From Escherichia phage vB_EcoS_IME347: DNA of 50,048 nt. Shown piece after piece: positions 1-41,438 of the stretch. Within the stretch, counting starts at the first letter, position 1, and the number at the start of each line of letters is the position of its first letter. The DNA lies in sequence record MH051918; one strand, 5' to 3'. The position numbers were made by a program, and so were the translations under genes. The notes under the pieces were generated by a model. The model saw only the letters and a list, made by a program, of their open reading frames with translations. It searched no databases and was not told where the DNA came from.

Positions 1-18
1 CCTACCGACTTTTCCGTT

Positions 19-36
19 TTTAGCAAAAAGTGCTAT
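19..36 (-). promoter_or_regulatory. box copy without a canonical -10 partner inside the window
   Basis: The plus strand reads TTTAGCAAAAAGTGCTAT, identical to copy 49862-49879. The expected -10 position would fall left of base 1. Confidence 0.4.
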
Positions 37-37
37 C

Positions 38-139
38 GTGACAAGATTACATTGACTCGCTGTATATCACTGTCTACAATTTCCCGGATTTGTCGGCGTG
101 ACAAAATTACACCTCGCGCCCCTGAGAGTGAGATTACAT
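38..139 (+). repeat. three direct GTGACAARATTACAY repeats
   Basis: GTGACAAGATTACAT at 38-52, GTGACAAAATTACAC at 98-112, GTGAGATTACAT at 128-139. Start-to-start spacings are 60 and 30 nt. Confidence 0.6.
52..80 (+). promoter_or_regulatory. sigma70-like promoter TTGACT-17-TACAAT
   Basis: TTGACT at 52-57, a 17-nt spacer, TACAAT at 75-80. Flanked by GTGACAARATTACAY repeats. About 365 nt upstream of the first ORF. Confidence 0.55.
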
Positions 140-3644: not shown

Positions 3645-3684
3645 CACGAATTGCTAAACCTTCCGCAAGGCCATTTGATATAGT
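3641..3684 (+). promoter_or_regulatory. box/-10 promoter cassette
   Basis: Box ATAGCACGAATTGCTAAA. Inverted repeat GGCCA/TGGCC (3669-3688). 22 nt spacing to TGaTATAGT (hexamer 3679-3684). Confidence 0.65.
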
Positions 3685-3724
3685 GGCCTTATTGAAGCAG
3701 AGCAACCAATCAGAGGCAATGACC

Positions 3725-4654: not shown

Positions 4655-4694
4655 CACGAATTGCTAAAACAATAATCCGGGGCTATGCCATAAT
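4651..4694 (+). promoter_or_regulatory. box/-10 promoter cassette
   Basis: Box ATAGCACGAATTGCTAAA. Inverted repeat GGGGCTAT/ATAGCCCC. 22 nt spacing to TGcCATAAT (hexamer 4689-4694). Confidence 0.65.
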
Positions 4695-4725
4695 AGCCCC
4701 ACACCAAACGAAAGAGGAAGTAGAT

Positions 4726-5474: not shown

Positions 5475-5514
5475 CACGAATTGCTAAAAACCTATCAGGG
5501 GAATGCGCTATGAT
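5471..5514 (+). promoter_or_regulatory. box/-10 promoter cassette
   Basis: Box ATAGCACGAATTGCTAAA. Inverted repeat GGGGAAT/ATTCCCC. 22 nt spacing to TATGAT (5509-5514). Confidence 0.6.
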
Positions 5515-7174: not shown

Positions 7175-7217
7175 TAGCACGAATTGCTAAAAACTCGGCG
7201 GGGTAAGCTGTTATAGT
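7174..7217 (+). promoter_or_regulatory. box/-10 promoter cassette
   Basis: Box ATAGCACGAATTGCTAAA. Inverted repeat GGGGTAA/TTACCCC. 22 nt spacing to TGtTATAGT (hexamer 7212-7217). Confidence 0.65.
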
Positions 7218-7253
7218 TACCCCATCGAAAACAACCAATCAGAGGAAACGCGA

Positions 7254-7441: not shown

Positions 7442-7645
7442 ATGAGCAACACAATCAAACTTCGCACGACTCACGCCGATTGCCCTTGGATTACTCCGGG
7501 CAAGATTTACGAGGCCGAATTGGTTGCGAAAGATGGATTTGACGGACTGTATCGGCTGAAGAATCCAGACTTCGGAGAGGTGCTCACTGCAATTGAGAAC
7601 TCCTGTCATTTGGGCGGGGAAAGTTGGGAAGTAGTCACCGAATAG
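7442..7645 (+). CDS. hypothetical small protein, 67 aa (KxKC family-like)
   Basis: Track ORF with an AAGGAG RBS. Contains IKLRTTHADCPWITPGKIYEAE. Its stop is the TAG of box 7642-7659. Confidence 0.75.
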   Translation: MSNTIKLRTTHADCPWITPGKIYEAELVAKDGFDGLYRLKNPDFGEVLTAIENSCHLGGESWEVVTE

Positions 7646-7685
7646 CACGAATTGCTAAAAGTTCCGCAAGGGCATTTGATAGAAT
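7642..7685 (+). promoter_or_regulatory. box/-10 promoter cassette
   Basis: Box ATAGCACGAATTGCTAAA. Inverted repeat GGGCA/TGCCC. 22 nt spacing to TGaTAGAAT (hexamer 7680-7685). Confidence 0.65.
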
Positions 7686-9537: not shown

Positions 9538-9561
9538 AAACCCGCCTCGGCGGGTTTTTTT
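9538..9561 (+). terminator. intrinsic terminator (end of left-arm early block)
   Basis: Stem CCCGC-ctcg-GCGGG (9541-9554) followed by T7. Confidence 0.8.
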
Positions 9562-9580
9562 ACGTCTGGAGTATGATAAA

Positions 9581-9598
9581 ATAGCACGAAATGTTAAA
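9581..9598 (+). promoter_or_regulatory. box copy in the terS leader
   Basis: ATAGCACGAAATGTTAAA lies between TGaTAAAAT (9574-9582) and the GGAGGA RBS. No -10 lies 22 nt downstream. Confidence 0.45.
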
Positions 9599-9614
9599 CA
9601 TCGGAGGACGTTTT

Positions 9615-10139
9615 ATGGAACGGAAAGAGAAAGCGCCCGTAGTGCAGGGCGGTAATTTTAAGGAGCTATACCGAAAGAAATTCGGAACGATTATCGGAAA
9701 ATCAGCCAGCTTCACGCCTGAACAGGTTTTCGATCTGGCGGTGAAGTATTTCACGTGGGCGGAGGACAACGCAATTAAAGCCTCTGAGACAGCGAGTTTT
9801 CAGGGTGAAGTGGAGGAGTCACTCGTTCATAAACCGCGCGTGTTTACTCACAACGGCTTCCGCCTGTTCCTTGGGATCAGCGAGTCGGCGGTCACGAAGT
9901 GGCGGCGACAGGAAGATTTCGCAGAGGTGATGGAGTTCGTTGATACGGTAATCAGCGAGCAGAAATTCCAGCTTGCAGCTAACGGCGTGATTAATGCCTC
10001 GTTCATCGGGAAAGACTTGGGGATCGACAAGCCAGCGACAATCAACATCGACAACCAAGCGAACGCCACGGCGGGCGCGATCGCCTCCACTGAGTCCGCG
10101 ATGCGCGATGCGGTAGAGAGTATTCTGGATAACCTTTAA
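9615..10139 (+). CDS. terS: terminase small subunit (putative), 174 aa
   Basis: Track ORF 9591.. trimmed to ATG 9615 (GGAGGA 6 nt upstream). Sits immediately upstream of terL. Size and N-terminal region are typical of phage small terminases. Confidence 0.6.
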   Translation: MERKEKAPVVQGGNFKELYRKKFGTIIGKSASFTPEQVFDLAVKYFTWAEDNAIKASETASFQGEVEESLVHKPRVFTHNGFRLFLGISESAVTKWRRQEDFAEVMEFVDTVISEQKFQLAANGVINASFIGKDLGIDKPATINIDNQANATAGAIASTESAMRDAVESILDNL

Positions 10140-11744: not shown

Positions 11745-11758
11745 ACGAGGTATAATCA

Positions 11759-11784
11759 GGGCTGGATTTTTCCAGCCCTTTTTT
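11759..11784 (+). terminator. intrinsic terminator after terL
   Basis: GGGCTGGA-tttt-TCCAGCCC followed by T6, then ATTGGAGGTA. Confidence 0.8.
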
Positions 11785-15464: not shown

Positions 15465-15479
15465 TAAGTAGCTAATATA

Positions 15480-15507
15480 GGGATTACCTTTTGGTAGTCC
15501 CTTTTTT
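15480..15507 (+). terminator. intrinsic terminator after decoration paralog A
   Basis: GGGATTACC-tttt-GGTAGTCCC (one mismatch) followed by T6, then ATTGGAGGTA. Confidence 0.7.
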
Positions 15508-16092: not shown

Positions 16093-16120
16093 TTGACGCT
16101 TTAACAAAAAGTGCTATCAT
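16093..16120 (+). promoter_or_regulatory. sigma70-like promoter TTGACG-16-TGcTATCAT (capsid gene)
   Basis: TTGACG at 16093-16098 and TATCAT at 16115-16120. The predicted +1 (~16127) lies inside the 5' arm of terminator 16121-16148. Confidence 0.55.
16100..16117 (-). promoter_or_regulatory. inverted box copy forming the spacer and TGn of the capsid promoter
   Basis: The plus strand reads TTTAACAAAAAGTGCTAT, embedded in TTGACG-16-TATCAT. Confidence 0.5.
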
Positions 16121-17145: not shown

Positions 17146-17158
17146 ATTGATTACTATA

Positions 17159-17186
17159 GGGACTCATTAATTTGAGTCCCTTTTTT
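17159..17186 (+). terminator. intrinsic terminator after the capsid gene
   Basis: GGGACTCA-ttaatt-TGAGTCCC followed by T6. Confidence 0.8.
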
Positions 17187-19843: not shown

Positions 19844-19867
19844 GGGGGCGCTTGCGCTCCCTTTTTT
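19844..19867 (+). terminator. intrinsic terminator after the tail tube gene
   Basis: GGGGGCG-cttg-CGCTCCC (one G.U pair) followed by T6. Confidence 0.8.
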
Positions 19868-19871
19868 GTTT

Positions 19872-19880
19872 CTGTAGAAT
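19872..19880 (+). promoter_or_regulatory. CTGTAGAAT -10-like nonamer after a terminator
   Basis: Lies 5 nt after the T-run of terminator 19844-19867. The motif recurs at 23924, 26057, 41647 and 37379 (minus strand). Confidence 0.4.
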
Positions 19881-19907
19881 CACTGTATCAAATCAATACG
19901 GCGCTGT

Positions 19908-19925
19908 TTTAACAAAAAGTGCTAT
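19908..19925 (-). promoter_or_regulatory. inverted box copy upstream of the tail chaperone gene
   Basis: The plus strand reads TTTAACAAAAAGTGCTAT followed by CAC, giving TGcTATCAC. Lies 24 nt before ATG 19949. Confidence 0.45.
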
Positions 19926-19948
19926 CACACCAATCAGGAGAAATGACA

Positions 19949-26028: not shown

Positions 26029-26053
26029 GACCCGCCTTGCGCGGGTTTTTTTT
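26029..26053 (+). terminator. intrinsic terminator after the I-like gene
   Basis: CCCGC-cttgc-GCGGG followed by T8. Confidence 0.8.
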
Positions 26054-26056
26054 CGC

Positions 26057-26065
26057 CTGTATAAT
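26057..26065 (+). promoter_or_regulatory. CTGTATAAT -10-like nonamer after a terminator
   Basis: Lies 4 nt after the T-run of terminator 26029-26053, upstream of the J-like gene. Confidence 0.4.
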
Positions 26066-26079
26066 GGCATCACCGATAA

Positions 26080-26097
26080 ATAGCACAAAAGGTTAAA
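26080..26097 (+). promoter_or_regulatory. box copy in the J-like gene leader
   Basis: ATAGCACAAAAGGTTAAA lies 14 nt after CTGTATAAT (26057-26065) and 4 nt before ATG 26102. Confidence 0.45.
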
Positions 26098-26101
26098 CAT
26101 C

Positions 26102-29100
26102 ATGAATCAAAAAGTGATAAGCGGCTCAAAGGGTGGCGGCGGAAGTCCGCACAAGCCCGTTGAAATGGAAGATAACCTGATCTCCATCAACAAAATCAGA
26201 GTTCTACTCGCTGTGTCTGACGGTGAAGTAGATCCCGATTTCGATATGTCCATGTTGTACTTGGACAACGTTCCAGTGATGAACAAAGACGGAACTTACA
26301 ACTACGAAGGAATCAAGGCGGAGTTCCGCCCCGGCACTCAGACGCAGGATTACATTCAGGGGTTCACCGACAGCGCAAGCGAAGTCACTATGAACCGGGT
26401 AATCAAAACTGACACCCCGTTTAGCATCAACGTTACGAACCGGAACCTTTCGGCAATCCGAATCAAGATGTTCATGGCTCGCGGCGTAAAGGTTGAGAGC
26501 AACGGCGACAAGAACGGCGTTCGCGTTGAATACAAGGTTGAAATGGCTGTGGATGGTGGAGCTTTCGAACCTGCACTCACTGACGTGATTGACGGAAAAA
26601 CAATGTCAGGATATGACCGTAGCCGCCGCATTAATCTGCCCTCGTTCAACTCTCAGGTGATCTTGCGAGTGTCTCGCGTAACGCCGGACTCCGACGATTC
26701 CAACCTGATTGACGAGATCCAGTTGCGCAGCTATGCGGAGGTTATTGACGCGAAGTTTCGTTATCCGCTGACCGGGCTACTGTTCGTTGAGTTCGATTCG
26801 CAGATGTTCCCGAACCAGATCCCGAACATTTCAATCAAAAAGAAATGGAAGGTTGTCAATGTACCGACGAACTACAACCCGGTAACTCGTGATTACTCTG
26901 GCACTTGGGACGGAACGTTTAAAAAGGCGTGGACGAACAACCCGGCTTGGGTTCTGTACGACATTATCACCAACCAACGTTACGGGCTTGACCAACGCGA
27001 GCTTGGGATTGATGTTGATAAGTGGTCGCTTTACGACGCCGGGCGCTATTGTGATCAGATGGTTCCAGACGGAAAGGGCGGAACCGAGCCGCGATATCTA
27101 TGCGACGTGGTTATTCAATCGCAGGTTGAGGCGTTTAAACTGGTGCGCGATATCTGCTCAATCTTCCGGGGTATGAGCTTTTGGAACGGCGAAAGCCTGT
27201 CTATTGTGATCGACAAGCCGCGCGAGCCGTCTTACATCTTCACGAACGAGAACGTTGTGAACGGTAATTTCTCATACGCTTTCGCGAGTGAGAAAAGCAT
27301 GTATACGGTGTGCAATGTCCAGTTTGATGATGAAGAGAACCTTTATCAACAGGACGTGGAGCCTGTTTTCGATACTGATGCGGCTCGCAGATTCGGCAAC
27401 AACCCGACGAGCATTACAGCGATCGGATGTACCCGGCGCAGTGAGGCTAATCGCCGGGGGCGCTGGATTCTCAGAACCAATTTACGAAGCACTACGATCA
27501 GTTTTGCTACCGGATTGGAAGGAATGATTCCGCAGATTGGCGATGTTATCGCGGTGGCGGATAACTCATTCTCAAGCAACCTCACGCTTAACCTTTCTGG
27601 TCGCGTGATGGAAGTTTCGGGATTGCAGGTTTTCACCGCCTTTAAGGTTGACGCTCGCGCAGGTGATTTTATTGTCGTAAATAAGCCGGATGGGAAGCCC
27701 GAGAAGAGGACTATCGCATCGGTATCGCCTGACGGCAAGACTATACAGTTAAACGTCGCATTCAGCTTCTCTGTGGCTCCTAACACTATCTTTGCAATTG
27801 ACCGCACGGACGTAGCGTTACAGCAATTCGTTGTTACGGATATTTCCAAGGGCGACAATGAAGAAGAGTTTGTGTTTAGCATTACTGCGGTTGAGTATGA
27901 CCCGAACAAGTACGACGCGATCGACTACGGAGTAAACGTTGACGAAAGGCCTACAAGCATTGTCGATCCTGACAAGCTTCCTCAGCCGCAAAACGTGCAG
28001 ATTGAGTCCTTCTCTCGTGTGGTTCAGGGCGTAAGCGTTGAAACGATGGTTATCAGTTGGGATAAGGTTCAGTATGCGGCTCAGTACGAAATCCAATGGC
28101 GAAAGGGTAATGGCAACTGGATTAACACGACACCAACGGCGAACAATGAAACGTTTATCGAAGGCATTTACGCCGGGCAATACTTCGTTCGGGTTCGCGC
28201 TGTATCGTCGGCGGGCAATGCTTCAATGTGGTCTGAAGTTGTCAGCGCATCACTGACGGGTAAAGTCGGAGAGCCGGGTTCGCCAATTAACTTCACGGCG
28301 TCCGATGATGTTGTTTTTGGCATTCGCCTGAAATGGGGCATGCCGGAAGGGACTGAAGATACCGCATATATTGAGGTTCAGCAGTCACCAAACAACAGCA
28401 TTGAAAATGCATCACTGCTAACGCTCGTTCCATACCCTCAACATGAGTATTTCCATACTCCACTTGAGGCCGGGAAGATGATCTTCTACCGCATTCGTGC
28501 GATAGACAGGATCGGAAATGTGTCCGGGTGGACTGACCTGATTCCGGGGATTGCCTCAACTGACGTTGAGAGCATTATCGGGGAAATCAAGGTTGATATC
28601 GAAAACTCCGAGGGGTTCAAGTGGTTGCAGGAAAATGCGGTAGATGCAAACTCGAAGATTCACGGGGCGGCTGAAGCGATAATCGAAACCACGCTGGCTA
28701 ACGATCGTGATGTTCGTATTCAGCGCAAGCGGAACGGGAAGTTCACTGCTCAGTTTAAGCAGTCATTCCAGTTAATCGCAGATGAAACGCAAGCAAGAGT
28801 TGAGCAGTATCAGGAGTTACAGGCCGACTTTGACGGAAAGATAACCGCAACTTCAACTCAGCTTAACCAGGCGATCGCTAACGAAAGGGAGGCGAGAACA
28901 ACTCAGGTAAACCAGATTAGCGCAACGTTCGGCGGAAACCTTGACGATCTTAGCGATAGGGTTGATGGTGATATCGGGGATCTTAATGGAAGGGTTGATG
29001 GTGAGGTTCGGGCTCGTCAAGCTGCGATCTCAAACGTAAACCAAGCCATTGCGAACGAAACCGAGGCGCGAGTTCAGGCTATCAATGATTTGAAAGCGCA

Positions 29101-35798: not shown

Positions 35799-35816
35799 AT
35801 AGCACTAATTGCTAAG
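35799..35816 (+). promoter_or_regulatory. box copy between two leftward genes, abutting the tail fibre RBS
   Basis: ATAGCACTAATTGCTAAG on the plus strand. Read leftward, it is CTTAGCAATTAGTGCTAT followed by TTACTTGGAGG and the ATG. Confidence 0.4.
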
Positions 35817-35879
35817 CACCGATTTTATCATTGTGGTATGCGCCCGGCAATAGGGCAATAAAAAACCCGCCGAAGCGGG

Positions 35880-36824: not shown

Positions 36825-36839
36825 TGAATTATCTCCAAT

Positions 36840-36873
36840 AAAAAACGCGTAACAGGAGTTTACCCGCTACGCG
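36840..36873 (-). terminator. terminator-like hairpin enclosing the primase -10
   Basis: Read on the minus strand: CGCGTA, a 16-nt loop, TACGCG, then T6 and ATTGGAG. Confidence 0.45.
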
Positions 36874-36900
36874 CTTTTGTGTTTTAGCTATTTGTGCTCT
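36857..36900 (-). promoter_or_regulatory. box/-10 promoter cassette (primase)
   Basis: Read on the minus strand: AGAGCACAAATAGCTAAA. 22 nt spacing to TAAACT. The hexamer lies in the loop of CGCGTA/TACGCG, which is followed by T6. Confidence 0.55.
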
Positions 36901-37327
36901 CGACTTCATCCTTTCGAACTACGCGCATGAACTTGCGGTTCTTGCATCGTTTTTCAAGGCACTTTCCGTTAGAGTCGAACTTGAGATCGAATCGCAGCCA
37001 GCTTGCGCGATACCCGGTACAACCCTGACGACGATACGCGCGATGCGCCGCCTCCGCTCCCTGCCAAGAAATCATGCCGCGAACTTTCCATTCGTTCACA
37101 TTCTGATTTGTTACCTTCAGGGCTTTCGCCGTGGCGGAGGGGGAGCCGTAGAATTCGATCAGGGCGTCAAGTCTGGCGCGTAGTCCGGCGCGAACCTCAT
37201 CTTTCAGGATGTAGAATCCGCATCGCTTGCGAGGCTTTACATCTTTGCCCCGTCGTGTACCATTGTTCCCGTTCAGGTGACGACGATCGATTTCCCCGGT
37301 TGATTCTGCAATACGCTTGATTGTCAT
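36884..37327 (-). CDS. HTH DNA-binding protein (YdaS/Cro-like) with basic Cys-containing C-terminus, 147 aa
   Basis: SATAKALKVTNQNVNEWKVRGMISWQGAEAAH resembles the YdaS/Cro-type HTH. Its last codons (AGC ACA AAT AGC TAA) form box 36883-36900. Confidence 0.55.
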   Translation of the reverse strand: MTIKRIAESTGEIDRRHLNGNNGTRRGKDVKPRKRCGFYILKDEVRAGLRARLDALIEFYGSPSATAKALKVTNQNVNEWKVRGMISWQGAEAAHRAYRRQGCTGYRASWLRFDLKFDSNGKCLEKRCKNRKFMRVVRKDEVESTNS

Positions 37328-37340
37328 AATAAATTCCTCA

Positions 37341-37383
37341 ATAGCACTTTTTGTTAAAACTAACTAATCGATGCGTGTATTAT
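37341..37383 (+). promoter_or_regulatory. box/-10 promoter cassette (helicase)
   Basis: Box ATAGCACTTTTTGTTAAA. 21 nt spacing to TATTAT (37378-37383). Inverted repeat GCGTG/CGCAC. Confidence 0.55.
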
Positions 37384-40668: not shown

Positions 40669-40910
40669 TGAATGAGAAAACTGTTTGCCTGAATGAATTT
40701 GGTCAATGGATGCTGTTCCGTGGGCTGGCGTGTTATGCGCTGGAGCGTCACGGCTTGACGGAAAAGGAATTGGGTTGCTCCCTTTGGGAATTCACGGAGT
40801 CGCTTGATATGTCATTCGAGGAAATTCGAAGTCTTGATTTGGCTCAGTGGGCTACAAAAGTAATGGCGGACGCCGAAGAGCTTAGAAACGAGATCGTGAA
40901 AAAGCACTAA
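40668..40910 (+). CDS. hypothetical small protein, 80 aa
   Basis: Track ORF with TAATG overlap with dam. Its last codons (AAG CAC TAA) form box 40901-40918. Confidence 0.7.
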   Translation: MNEKTVCLNEFGQWMLFRGLACYALERHGLTEKELGCSLWEFTESLDMSFEEIRSLDLAQWATKVMADAEELRNEIVKKH

Positions 40911-40975: not shown

Positions 40976-41173
40976 ATGACTCGCATCAATGAAGCTTTCT
41001 TTAAAATGGCTCAGTCCTCCGCTAAGACGGCGACGGAATTAACCTCGTATCACGCCGGGCAATTTGATTGGGCTATCGCAATGGACTTCCTGAAAATGGC
41101 TTACTACCGTTGCACCGTTGAGGATATGGAAGGTTTCATTCGTGACGTTGAGAAGGTACTGAATAGTGATTAA
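40976..41173 (+). CDS. hypothetical small protein, 65 aa
   Basis: Track ORF 40952.. trimmed to ATG 40976 (GGAGA 8 nt upstream), after cassette 40901-40944. Confidence 0.7.
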   Translation: MTRINEAFFKMAQSSAKTATELTSYHAGQFDWAIAMDFLKMAYYRCTVEDMEGFIRDVEKVLNSD

Positions 41174-41438
41174 AGAATCTGGAAGGCAAGCCGTTTGGAG
41201 TCACGCAAAAGAAACGGGGCTGGCGGACGGGATCGCACTAATTGCTAAATACTTCGATATAAAAGACGTTAGTATTATCGGCAACGGGAAGATAACCTTC
41301 ATCGAAGAGCTTCCCCGGAAGTGCCACCGAGTCCCGGCAACTCCCGGACTTGAGTTTTACCGGGAGGAGGGTAAGCGAATCATGCAAGAATTTAAGGCGA
41401 GCAAAAATGACAAGAGAACTTCCCGGCTTAAACGGTAA
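41166..41438 (+). CDS. hypothetical small protein, 90 aa
   Basis: Track ORF with a GTG start that overlaps the upstream end by 8 nt. Contains an internal box/-10 cassette at 41232-41275. Confidence 0.55.
   Translation: MIKESGRQAVWSHAKETGLADGIALIAKYFDIKDVSIIGNGKITFIEELPRKCHRVPATPGLEFYREEGKRIMQEFKASKNDKRTSRLKR
41232..41275 (+). promoter_or_regulatory. box/-10 cassette located inside an ORF
   Basis: Box ATCGCACTAATTGCTAAA, encoded as GIALIAKY. 22 nt spacing to TAGTAT (41270-41275). No obvious inverted repeat. Confidence 0.4.

Follow-up and report, generated by a model that had tools for sequence, protein, structure and literature searches.

Marbox-like sites in the early promoters and late leaders of the T1-like phage vB_EcoS_IME347

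We analysed the 50,048-nucleotide sequence of Escherichia phage vB_EcoS_IME347 (record MH051918; hereafter the window), a T1-like siphophage of the Drexlerviridae. Its gene order is that of T1, and its identity to the compared deposited genomes (e.g. SRT8, BrunoManser and IME-JL8) is at most about 81%. The subject is a short box repeated along the window, and in particular its copies in the leaders of the terminase gene terS and of the J-like tail gene (J). The box resembles the marbox, the 20-bp asymmetric site for the monomeric AraC-family proteins MarA, SoxS and Rob (RamA in Klebsiella and Salmonella).

The terS and J leaders

Each leader carries a forward box between a terminator-promoter unit and the start codon. 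The features of the two loci are as follows.

26030..26054, plus strand: intrinsic terminator at the end of the upstream tail operon (hairpin 26030-26046 and T-run)
26037-26042, plus strand: −35-like TTGCGC in the terminator loop, 17 nt from TATAAT
26060-26065, plus strand: TATAAT, −10 of the J promoter, 14 nt before the box; we infer a start near 26072
26080..26099, plus strand: 20-bp J-leader marbox, forward; box 26080-26097 is ATAGCACAAAAGGTTAAA; predicted +9..+28, centre about +18
26089..26092, plus strand: AAGG inside the J marbox, probable Shine-Dalgarno sequence of J
9574..9582, plus strand: TGaTAAAAT (TGATAAAAT), extended −10 of the terS promoter, after a terminator (9541-9554) and its T-run
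9581..9600, plus strand: 20-bp terS-leader marbox, forward; box 9581-9598 is ATAGCACGAAATGTTAAA; predicted about −8..+12, overlapping the −10 and the predicted start

In J the order is terminator, TATAAT, 14 nt, ATAGCACAAAAGGTTAAA, CATC and the ATG at 26102; in terS it is terminator, TGATAAAAT, ATAGCACGAAATGTTAAA, CATC, GGAGGA (9603-9608) and the ATG at 9615. From the end of the box to the ATG there are thus 4 nt in J and 16 nt in terS, and because the box lies so near the ATG, rather than about 76 nt upstream, these two copies stand apart from the others. A preliminary description of this DNA had noted two forward boxes downstream of, or overlapping, a −10 element. Its coordinates prove exact and the layout is kept in relatives. 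The stretch GTTAAACATC, which it reported as common to both copies, is indeed shared in the window, but the CATC that follows the box is lineage-specific and is not kept at the terS and J loci of relatives.

Those loci were retrieved by TerS and J protein homology, independently of the box. For J we aligned 44 distinct leaders, setting aside L066, which is without the box, and L065, which has an insertion. All 44 have the terminator, TATAAT, 13-16 variable nt, A[T/C]AGCACAAAAGGTTAAA and the ATG. Only three non-coding blocks are at least 90% conserved: the terminator/−35 loop (TTGCGcGG), the −10 (TATAAT or TACAAT in relatives) and AGCACAAA..G.tAAA. The terS layout of terminator, TG[A/C/G]TAAAAT overlapping the box, and Shine-Dalgarno sequence is present in 15 of 16 loci of relatives. 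Among those 15 the TGnTAAAAT element varies only at the 'n' (A, C or G), so it behaves as a true extended −10. A generic promoter scan misses both promoters, whose −35 matches are weak.

At J the preliminary description had seen almost no ribosome-binding site, and here it needs amending, since a conserved AAGG (26089-26092) lies within the box. Relatives have AAGG or AAAGG there, save for the L047 subgroup, whose box reads TTG at that place and which carries a GGAGG outside it. Because TTG replaces AAGG only where that separate GGAGG is present, the AAGG is probably the Shine-Dalgarno sequence. At loci L047-L049, L064 and L067 the J open reading frame (ORF) starts at an ATG homologous to the window GTG at 26117 (ATGATAAGCGGC), with GGAGG before it. 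The distance from the box to xTGATAAGC is constant in all J groups, whether the start corresponds to 26102 or to 26117, and the annotated J start may fall on different codons across lineages.

Two relatives lack one leader copy each and keep the terminator-promoter design: HCF1 (L181, 25560-25631) is without the J-leader marbox (TATACT..AAAGGAGGTAAACACATG), and L017 (1090-1200), a metagenomic relative, is without the terS-leader marbox (cTGTTATAAT, then leader). HCF1 does not serve as a natural no-box control, as only its J-leader copy is missing and its other boxes and the regulator are present. A lambda Q-type pause element in the J leader was also considered and rejected: the bases between start and box vary (ATAAAT, ACAAAC, TCAAAT and others) and hold no conserved TAnnnT.

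The box family of the window

Allowing up to three mismatches the window holds 28 copies of the box, against 0.36 expected, which is far above chance. Among the 22 boxes with an exact core, 17 have a −10 at N19-21 (15 of them at exactly N20). The remainder are the terS, J, capsid-gene and tail-fibre copies together with one copy truncated by the window edge. The terS and J copies are a real positional minority. The usual module consists of the box, exactly 20 nt, a −10 that is often TGn-extended, a CATCGAAACGAA-type leader and a ribosome-binding site.

The matrix of the 54 promoter-type copies reads A1 Y2 A3 G4 C5 A6 C7 n W W T11 W G13 Y14 T15 A A A. T11 is kept in 53 of the 54 and is absent from both forward leader copies, where the TTG of the repeat has become ATG (terS) or AGG (J), with ATAGCAC and TAAA intact in both. 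The TTGCTA of the box is not an ordinary −35, as a 22-nt spacer is too long, and a cruciform that would shorten this spacer was dismissed on geometry.

Sequence and spacing of the box match the marbox

A marbox consensus that we take to be AYnGCACnnWnnRYYAAAYn, its core alone being confirmed from papers, resembled the box matrix. Sharma et al. 2017 give a marbox consensus, gcactaattgctaaa, from MarA chromatin immunoprecipitation (ChIP) sequencing, along with a list of MarA-bound sites. This consensus occurs at 15/15 positions at 40904 and 41235 in the window and at 14/15 at 35802, and the GCAC A site, YAAA B site and A/T-rich spacer of the marbox are all found in the window's boxes. We then built an independent matrix from 30 of the E. 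coli MarA ChIP sites in that list, using no phage sites. In the window it returns 30 sites of at least 14 bits, all of them boxes, compared with 0.55 in shuffles; the median genuine site scores about 13.4. With the same matrix, T1 has 25 matches, BrunoManser 27 and HCF1 10, whereas 110 kb of control phage loci yield none. Across the 54 promoter-type copies the marbox pattern is matched both where the sequence is invariant (GCAC, G13, T15, AAA) and where it is degenerate (Y2, W10, Y14).

The terS marbox scores 17.8 bits (17.8-19 with relatives included), and the T1 terS copy, GCACTAAATGTTAAA, is identical at 15/15 positions to the MarA-bound E. coli pheP site. The J marbox scores 13.8 bits, below every promoter-type copy, with variants in relatives ranging from 9.1 to 18.2.

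The spacing rules also agree. Class II marboxes are forward, lie over a poor −35 and are centred near −41; at micF the centre of the soxbox is at −41.5, and ChIP data put the peak of forward sites at −41. Authentic micF, fetched from E. coli, reads ACAGCACTGAATGTCAAA, N20, TAGAAT, N7, +1, which is the register of the phage promoters and puts box G4 and A6 at −47G and −45A, the bases that Rob contacts. The early and middle copies show this arrangement (forward box, poor −35 overlapped, centre about −41, micF register), in contrast to terS and J, and 10 of the 17 promoters concerned have a TGn-extended −10. At fpr the box is reversed and a 15-bp spacer precedes the −35; in the fpr/mar type generally the spacer before a good −35 is about 15-16 bp. 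The left end of the window has a reversed box 15 bp before its −35 in the same way and is close to marRAB in geometry and sequence (the marRAB sequence was verified at 74/74). The left ends of the window and of T1 share the order reversed box, 15 nt, TTGACT or TTGATT, N17 and a −10.

7642..7685, plus strand: representative class II marbox promoter, ATAGCACGAATTGCTAAA, N20, TAGAAT (7680-7685); about 17 such in the window
17..80, plus strand: left-end σ70 promoter, with reverse marbox 17-36 (minus strand), 15-bp spacer, TTGACT, N17, TACAAT

MarA, SoxS and Rob have motifs that are indistinguishable from one another and common to enteric bacteria. Judged from the DNA alone, the box is indistinguishable from the marbox of these host proteins in sequence, degeneracy and spacing rules.

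The preliminary description had assumed that a phage protein binds the box; the evidence instead favours a host protein. A member of the host MarA/SoxS/Rob family is the most likely binder, because the sequence matches a marbox, the spacing is that of micF and fpr, and no AraC-type phage gene was found: tblastn and phmmer searches for a MarA-like phage protein, with MarA-type probe sequences, gave only noise, and a Pfam search of 20 ORFs gave no AraC or HTH_18 match. Moreover, the box stays unchanged while the phage's own regulator diverges to 48% identity, a constancy that is expected if a host protein sets the constraint. The motifs that we assume for Lrp, DeoR, SlyA, Fis, DnaA and IHF fit worse than the marbox. 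We found no publication tying marboxes to T1-like phages in the searchable literature, the T1 genome paper (PMID 14972552) being outside that search, and the marbox identity of the T1/TLS repeat appears to be unreported there.

Six boxes within or just downstream of σ70 promoters

The preliminary description treated terS and J as the two copies of their kind. Boxes in reverse orientation occupy leader or core-promoter positions at four more genes, and on present predictions the terS and J copies are part of a six-member class lying within or just downstream of σ70 promoters: those of terS, the major capsid gene, the tape-measure chaperone gene, J, the lateral tail-fibre gene and a gene for a Cro-like helix-turn-helix (HTH) regulator.

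16098..16117, minus strand: marbox in the spacer of the major-capsid-gene promoter, reverse orientation, predicted centre about −19.5
16093-16120, plus strand: major-capsid promoter, TTGACG (16093-16098), N16, TGcTATCAT (16112-16120)
19906..19925, minus strand: marbox in the tape-measure-chaperone leader, reverse, predicted about +20..+39, about 27 nt after the late −10 TAGAAT (19875-19880)
35799..35818, plus strand: marbox at the lateral tail-fibre gene (a minus-strand gene), reversed relative to the gene, predicted about −3..+17
37341..37360, plus strand: marbox between the helicase and regulator genes, class II box of the helicase promoter (−10 TATTAT, 37378-37383)
36884..37327, minus strand: Cro-like HTH regulator gene (T1 gp23 family)

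The capsid promoter is the top σ70 match of the late region and, at 10/12 with the TG, is called by the promoter scan. The tail-fibre box, GCACTAATTGCTAAG, is the consensus marbox at 14/15; it lies 5 nt after a TGaTAAAAT promoter (35830-35822) and 6 nt before GGAGGA. Between helicase and regulator one box faces two ways, as it also lies at about +13..+32 of the minus-strand regulator transcript (−10 TATAAT, 37384-37379) and adjoins the regulator's Shine-Dalgarno sequence. We examined 79 regulator loci, giving 64-69 distinct upstream regions and a protein identity of 50-82%. In all of them the box adjoins the Shine-Dalgarno sequence, 20-21 nt after TATAAT, and this TATAAT occupies the same position as the opposite-strand −10 of the helicase promoter, which depends on the box. 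In each relative examined, a marbox appears to control the Cro-like gene.

Start sites were taken 7 nt after each −10, as at micF, and the positions that follow from them are predictions. The 20-bp sites would be centred at about −19.5 (capsid), +2 (terS), +7 (tail fibre), +18 (J), +22 (regulator) and +29 (chaperone). Five of these predicted centres are within the core-promoter range of −35 to +25, with the chaperone site outside it. Relatives included, the leader copies score 9-19 bits, compared with quartiles of 10.4/13.5/15.9 for the E. coli sites, and the four reverse copies are at orthologous places in T1 and BrunoManser. Given the conserved J footprint, the E. coli-like scores, this orthology and the uniformity of the regulator loci, the leader copies are to be regarded as real sites under selection.

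At 19875-19887 the late −10 TAGAAT and an opposite-strand class II −10, TACAGT, are only 1 nt apart. Either predicted start would fall inside the other promoter's −10, so that the two should be mutually exclusive and divergent, and the predicted minus-strand product from near 19887 would be a short RNA running into a terminator hairpin at 19844-19861.

Alternative explanations

The first alternative, which we consider unlikely, is that the phage's own Cro-like HTH protein uses the box as its operator; a dimer of this protein would bind TAGCA-N5-TGCTA, activate from −42, repress the leaders and regulate its own gene. This protein is the sole annotated regulator in these genomes, and its predicted core is an all-alpha Cro fold (template modelling score 0.70-0.72 with the Xfaso-1 and N15 Cro proteins; predicted local distance difference test score 85.7). 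The box contains a 5+5 inverted repeat fit for such a dimer, and its place beside the regulator's Shine-Dalgarno sequence at each of the distinct upstream regions, in a bidirectional promoter, is the classic autoregulatory layout. The box itself is nevertheless asymmetric: ATAGCAC is invariant and T11 nearly so, neither A1/A17 nor C7/T11 is symmetric, and G-to-A changes are tolerated in one half only. All specified and degenerate positions agree with a monomeric marbox, the spacing rules are those of micF and fpr, and regulators of 48-93% identity all go with an unchanged box. The early promoters would, in addition, have to await a protein encoded mid-genome. Co-variation of regulator and box could not be used as a test, since a 48%-identical homologue and HCF1 carry the same box. 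Two further parts of the regulator have no match in Pfam or PDB: a basic arm at the N terminus, which is invariant (IDKRxxNGNNGTRRGKDKKPRKR), and a module at the C terminus, which is conserved (RASFCRPDLKFDSNGK..RC).

A distinctly unlikely second alternative is promoter interference, in which a bound activator draws polymerase to an overlapping, opposed or tandem class II promoter or pseudopromoter and so excludes polymerase from the late promoter. It too needs an activator that binds marboxes. At the chaperone locus, read on the minus strand, the marbox has its own TGaTACAGT at N20 (19882-19887), forming a class II promoter back-to-back with the late one, and T1 (TGaTAAGAT) and BrunoManser (TGaTACGAT) have counterparts. 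The regulator and helicase promoters use one −10 region, J has gTGaTAAGCG at exactly N20 (also in the L047 subgroup, where the ATG forms part of it), and in three phages TGnTAYnnG follows the tail-fibre copy at N20. Set against this, N20 is empty at terS, the critical −7 T is missing from the J and fibre hexamers, and the J hexamer is part of a conserved stretch of coding sequence (V/M-I-S-G), a fact that could by itself account for its conservation.

That the terS and J copies are non-regulatory, being left over from promoter cassettes and retained for other reasons such as an A-rich translation leader or the J Shine-Dalgarno sequence, we regard as very unlikely. The probable translational role of the J AAGG, the A-rich and unstructured character of the leaders and the fact that HCF1 (J) and L017 (terS) manage without the box speak for it. 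But conservation of the GCAC half, which plays no part in translation, equals that of the −10, whereas the leader bases around it vary; terS has a separate GGAGGA and still a top-scoring marbox; and four more late or regulator promoters have boxes at orthologous places in T1 and BrunoManser.

The RNA-level operator offered by the preliminary description, a UAGCA-N5-UGCUA hairpin or linear RNA motif bound by a translational repressor, is extremely improbable even though only 0-10 nt separate box and ribosome-binding site at the terS, J, tail-fibre and regulator genes and the GCTA-to-GTTA change retains a G.U pair: there is no covariation (pairing cells 74.1% against 72.6% shuffled, with 130 of 500 shuffles equal or better), T1-type J leaders break the stem, an A.C mismatch appears in the transcript of 40 of 64 reverse-orientation leader copies, the stem energies are just −0.1 and −1.2 kcal/mol and the J leader has less structure than its shuffles (z = +1.19), the RNAs differ because both orientations occur, the predicted terS start inside the box would leave a transcript without the ATAGCAC half, and a strict 20-nt spacing to the −10 is a property of DNA.

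Comparison with known systems

The closest likeness is to the mar/sox/rob regulon itself, of E. coli and other enteric bacteria, with which the phage shares the exact 15-bp core, the same degeneracy, the micF register, an fpr-like reversed box and a pbpG-like site in a promoter spacer. The ChIP study reports a few dozen MarA peaks per E. coli genome, whereas the phage has about 30 high-scoring sites in 50 kb. The phage sites differ further in that they are predicted to organise a viral early/late programme and in that several lie downstream of the start (+18 to +29).

The box is the same element as the 21-nt direct repeat of phage TLS, aaATAGCACnnnTTGnTAAAA, which has 21 copies there and which the paper describing it (German, Kropinski et al. 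2024, PMC11447400) also notes in T1, Rtp and Rogue1. In the TLS numbering the J-leader copy is DR8 and the capsid-gene copy is DR7. That paper treats the copies as one class lying about 76 nt upstream of start codons and suggests a stoperator, an enhancer site or an UP-like element; it makes no link to marboxes and does not separate the leader copies from the rest. The terS and J copies conform to the aaATAGCACnnnTTGnTAAAA consensus, are intergenic and are co-directional with transcription, but do not lie at the position about 76 nt upstream.

Position-dependent action of one regulator is familiar from lambda CI, which activates or represses according to where its site lies. For phi29 p4, PMC3100819 likewise describes one element with position-dependent activation and repression in an early/late switch. 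Both proteins are phage-encoded dimers, whereas here the best candidate is a monomeric host protein. The stoperators of mycobacteriophage L5 are also many copies of an asymmetric site across a genome, some in transcribed regions. Those sites all face the same way with respect to transcription and are bound by a temperate phage's repressor; in our case the leader copies occur in both orientations, most boxes are of activator type at a fixed −41, and the phage is virulent.

Further features of the promoter modules

A consensus marbox, ATCGCACTAATTGCTAAA, with TAGTAT at N20 lies at 41232-41275, within the ORF at 41166-41438. It is kept at the same place in T1 (40308) and BrunoManser (31597), which suggests an internal promoter.

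In many early modules an inverted repeat of 6-8 bp carries the −10 in its loop, as in GGGGCT-atgcCATAAT-AGCCCC at 4679-4700, and also at 2605-2632, 3659-3684, 5480-5504, 7182-7205 and 7660-7685. The stems vary between modules and remain complementary, a paralogous covariation, and could reflect structure in read-through RNA or a GC-rich discriminator. Another subset of modules has a hairpin between box and −10.

At several junctions a −10 (TATAAT, TAATAT, TACTAT or TAAACT) lies directly before or inside the hairpin of an intrinsic terminator (11751-11779, 15473-15502, 17152-17181 and, on the minus strand, 36830-36880). Transcripts initiated there would be without the 5' arm and would escape termination, and those from upstream would stop. 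This would be a compact terminator-plus-restart design for the T1 'transcriptons'.

A leader motif, AACCAATCAGAGG or CCAATCAGGAG, which includes the Shine-Dalgarno sequence, stands directly 5' of many start codons (3700-3712, 7228-7240, 19927-19940; nine copies in HCF1), and CATCGAAACGAA recurs at predicted transcript 5' ends. Both may be translation or stability signals.

Discussion

We consider it reasonably probable that the phage box is the host marbox, and that MarA, SoxS or Rob activates the early and middle promoters and hinders the six promoters of the leader class. At about 17 early and middle promoters the forward box covers the missing −35 with its centre at about −41, and the bound host protein would recruit σ70 RNA polymerase there. 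In the leader class the marbox lies in or just after an activator-independent σ70 promoter that follows a terminator. A protein on such a site would overlap the polymerase footprint or the first transcribed nucleotides and so hinder initiation or early elongation. The MarA family activates from −41 and represses when its site overlaps the core promoter; core-promoter sites are those centred from −35 to +25 in either orientation, and at pbpG, where the marbox is in the promoter spacer, MarA, SoxS and Rob all repress. Given this behaviour, the same host protein should damp the late σ70 promoters. The preliminary description had proposed a dual regulator, and much of that idea holds: the box is at about −42 in early promoters with a strict 20-nt spacing to the −10, and in or after the promoter at terS and J. 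What does not carry over is a phage protein as the binder.

The arrangement suggests that phage gene timing may depend on a host regulator of the antibiotic and stress responses. Where free MarA, SoxS or Rob is high relative to the number of marboxes, early genes would be boosted and the late units of the leader class damped. Replication of phage DNA, with about 30 sites per genome, together with failing host expression would leave sites empty and flip the balance, and the weaker J site would empty first. The loss of T11 from both forward leader copies and the weak J site fit sites that bind but do not recruit and that lose occupancy early. A timer set by titration or decay is our hypothesis.

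Several points weigh against the proposal. A literature search on T1-like phages turned up no measurements of binding, transcription starts or expression. Cells that are not under stress contain little MarA or SoxS, and most of their Rob is in aggregates, yet growth of T1-like phages is fast. The 10 of 17 class II promoters with a TGn-extended −10 might fire without an activator. A monomer centred at +18 to +29 is a weak roadblock, and the documented cases of MarA-family repression concern sites within the core promoter, with no precedent found for +18 to +29. Since HCF1/L066 does without the J copy and L017 without the terS copy, leader copies are dispensable in some lineages. The AAGG of the J box may be conserved partly for translation, and late promoters under repression need a mechanism of relief, for which we have a hypothesis only. 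Lastly, it is possible that a non-AraC phage protein mimics marbox specificity.

The timing of gene expression in T1-like phages has been a question since the T1 genome was sequenced, and papers on T1-like genomes list only 3-10 σ70 promoters. Reading the box as a marbox would explain the missing promoters, class II promoters being those without a −35, the constancy of the element across a phage family whose known hosts are mostly enteric, and the few copies in 'wrong' places. More tentatively, and with less chance of being right, nearly the whole transcription programme of the Drexlerviridae may be wired to MarA, SoxS, Rob and RamA, with about 20 class II marboxes per genome driving the early and middle genes, marboxes in the promoters of the terS, capsid, tape-measure-chaperone, J and tail-fibre genes restraining late genes, and a switch by titration or decay. 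If this were true, infection would sense salicylate, bile, oxidants or exposure to antibiotics, and the phage DNA, as it replicates, would serve as a sponge of marboxes and bring down the mar response of the host. The marbox reading itself, if right, would tie phage development to the regulators behind clinical multidrug resistance. Isolates that overproduce MarA or RamA might then be better or differently timed hosts, and inducers such as salicylate and bile could tune infection, points that bear on phage therapy and on the control of T1 contamination.

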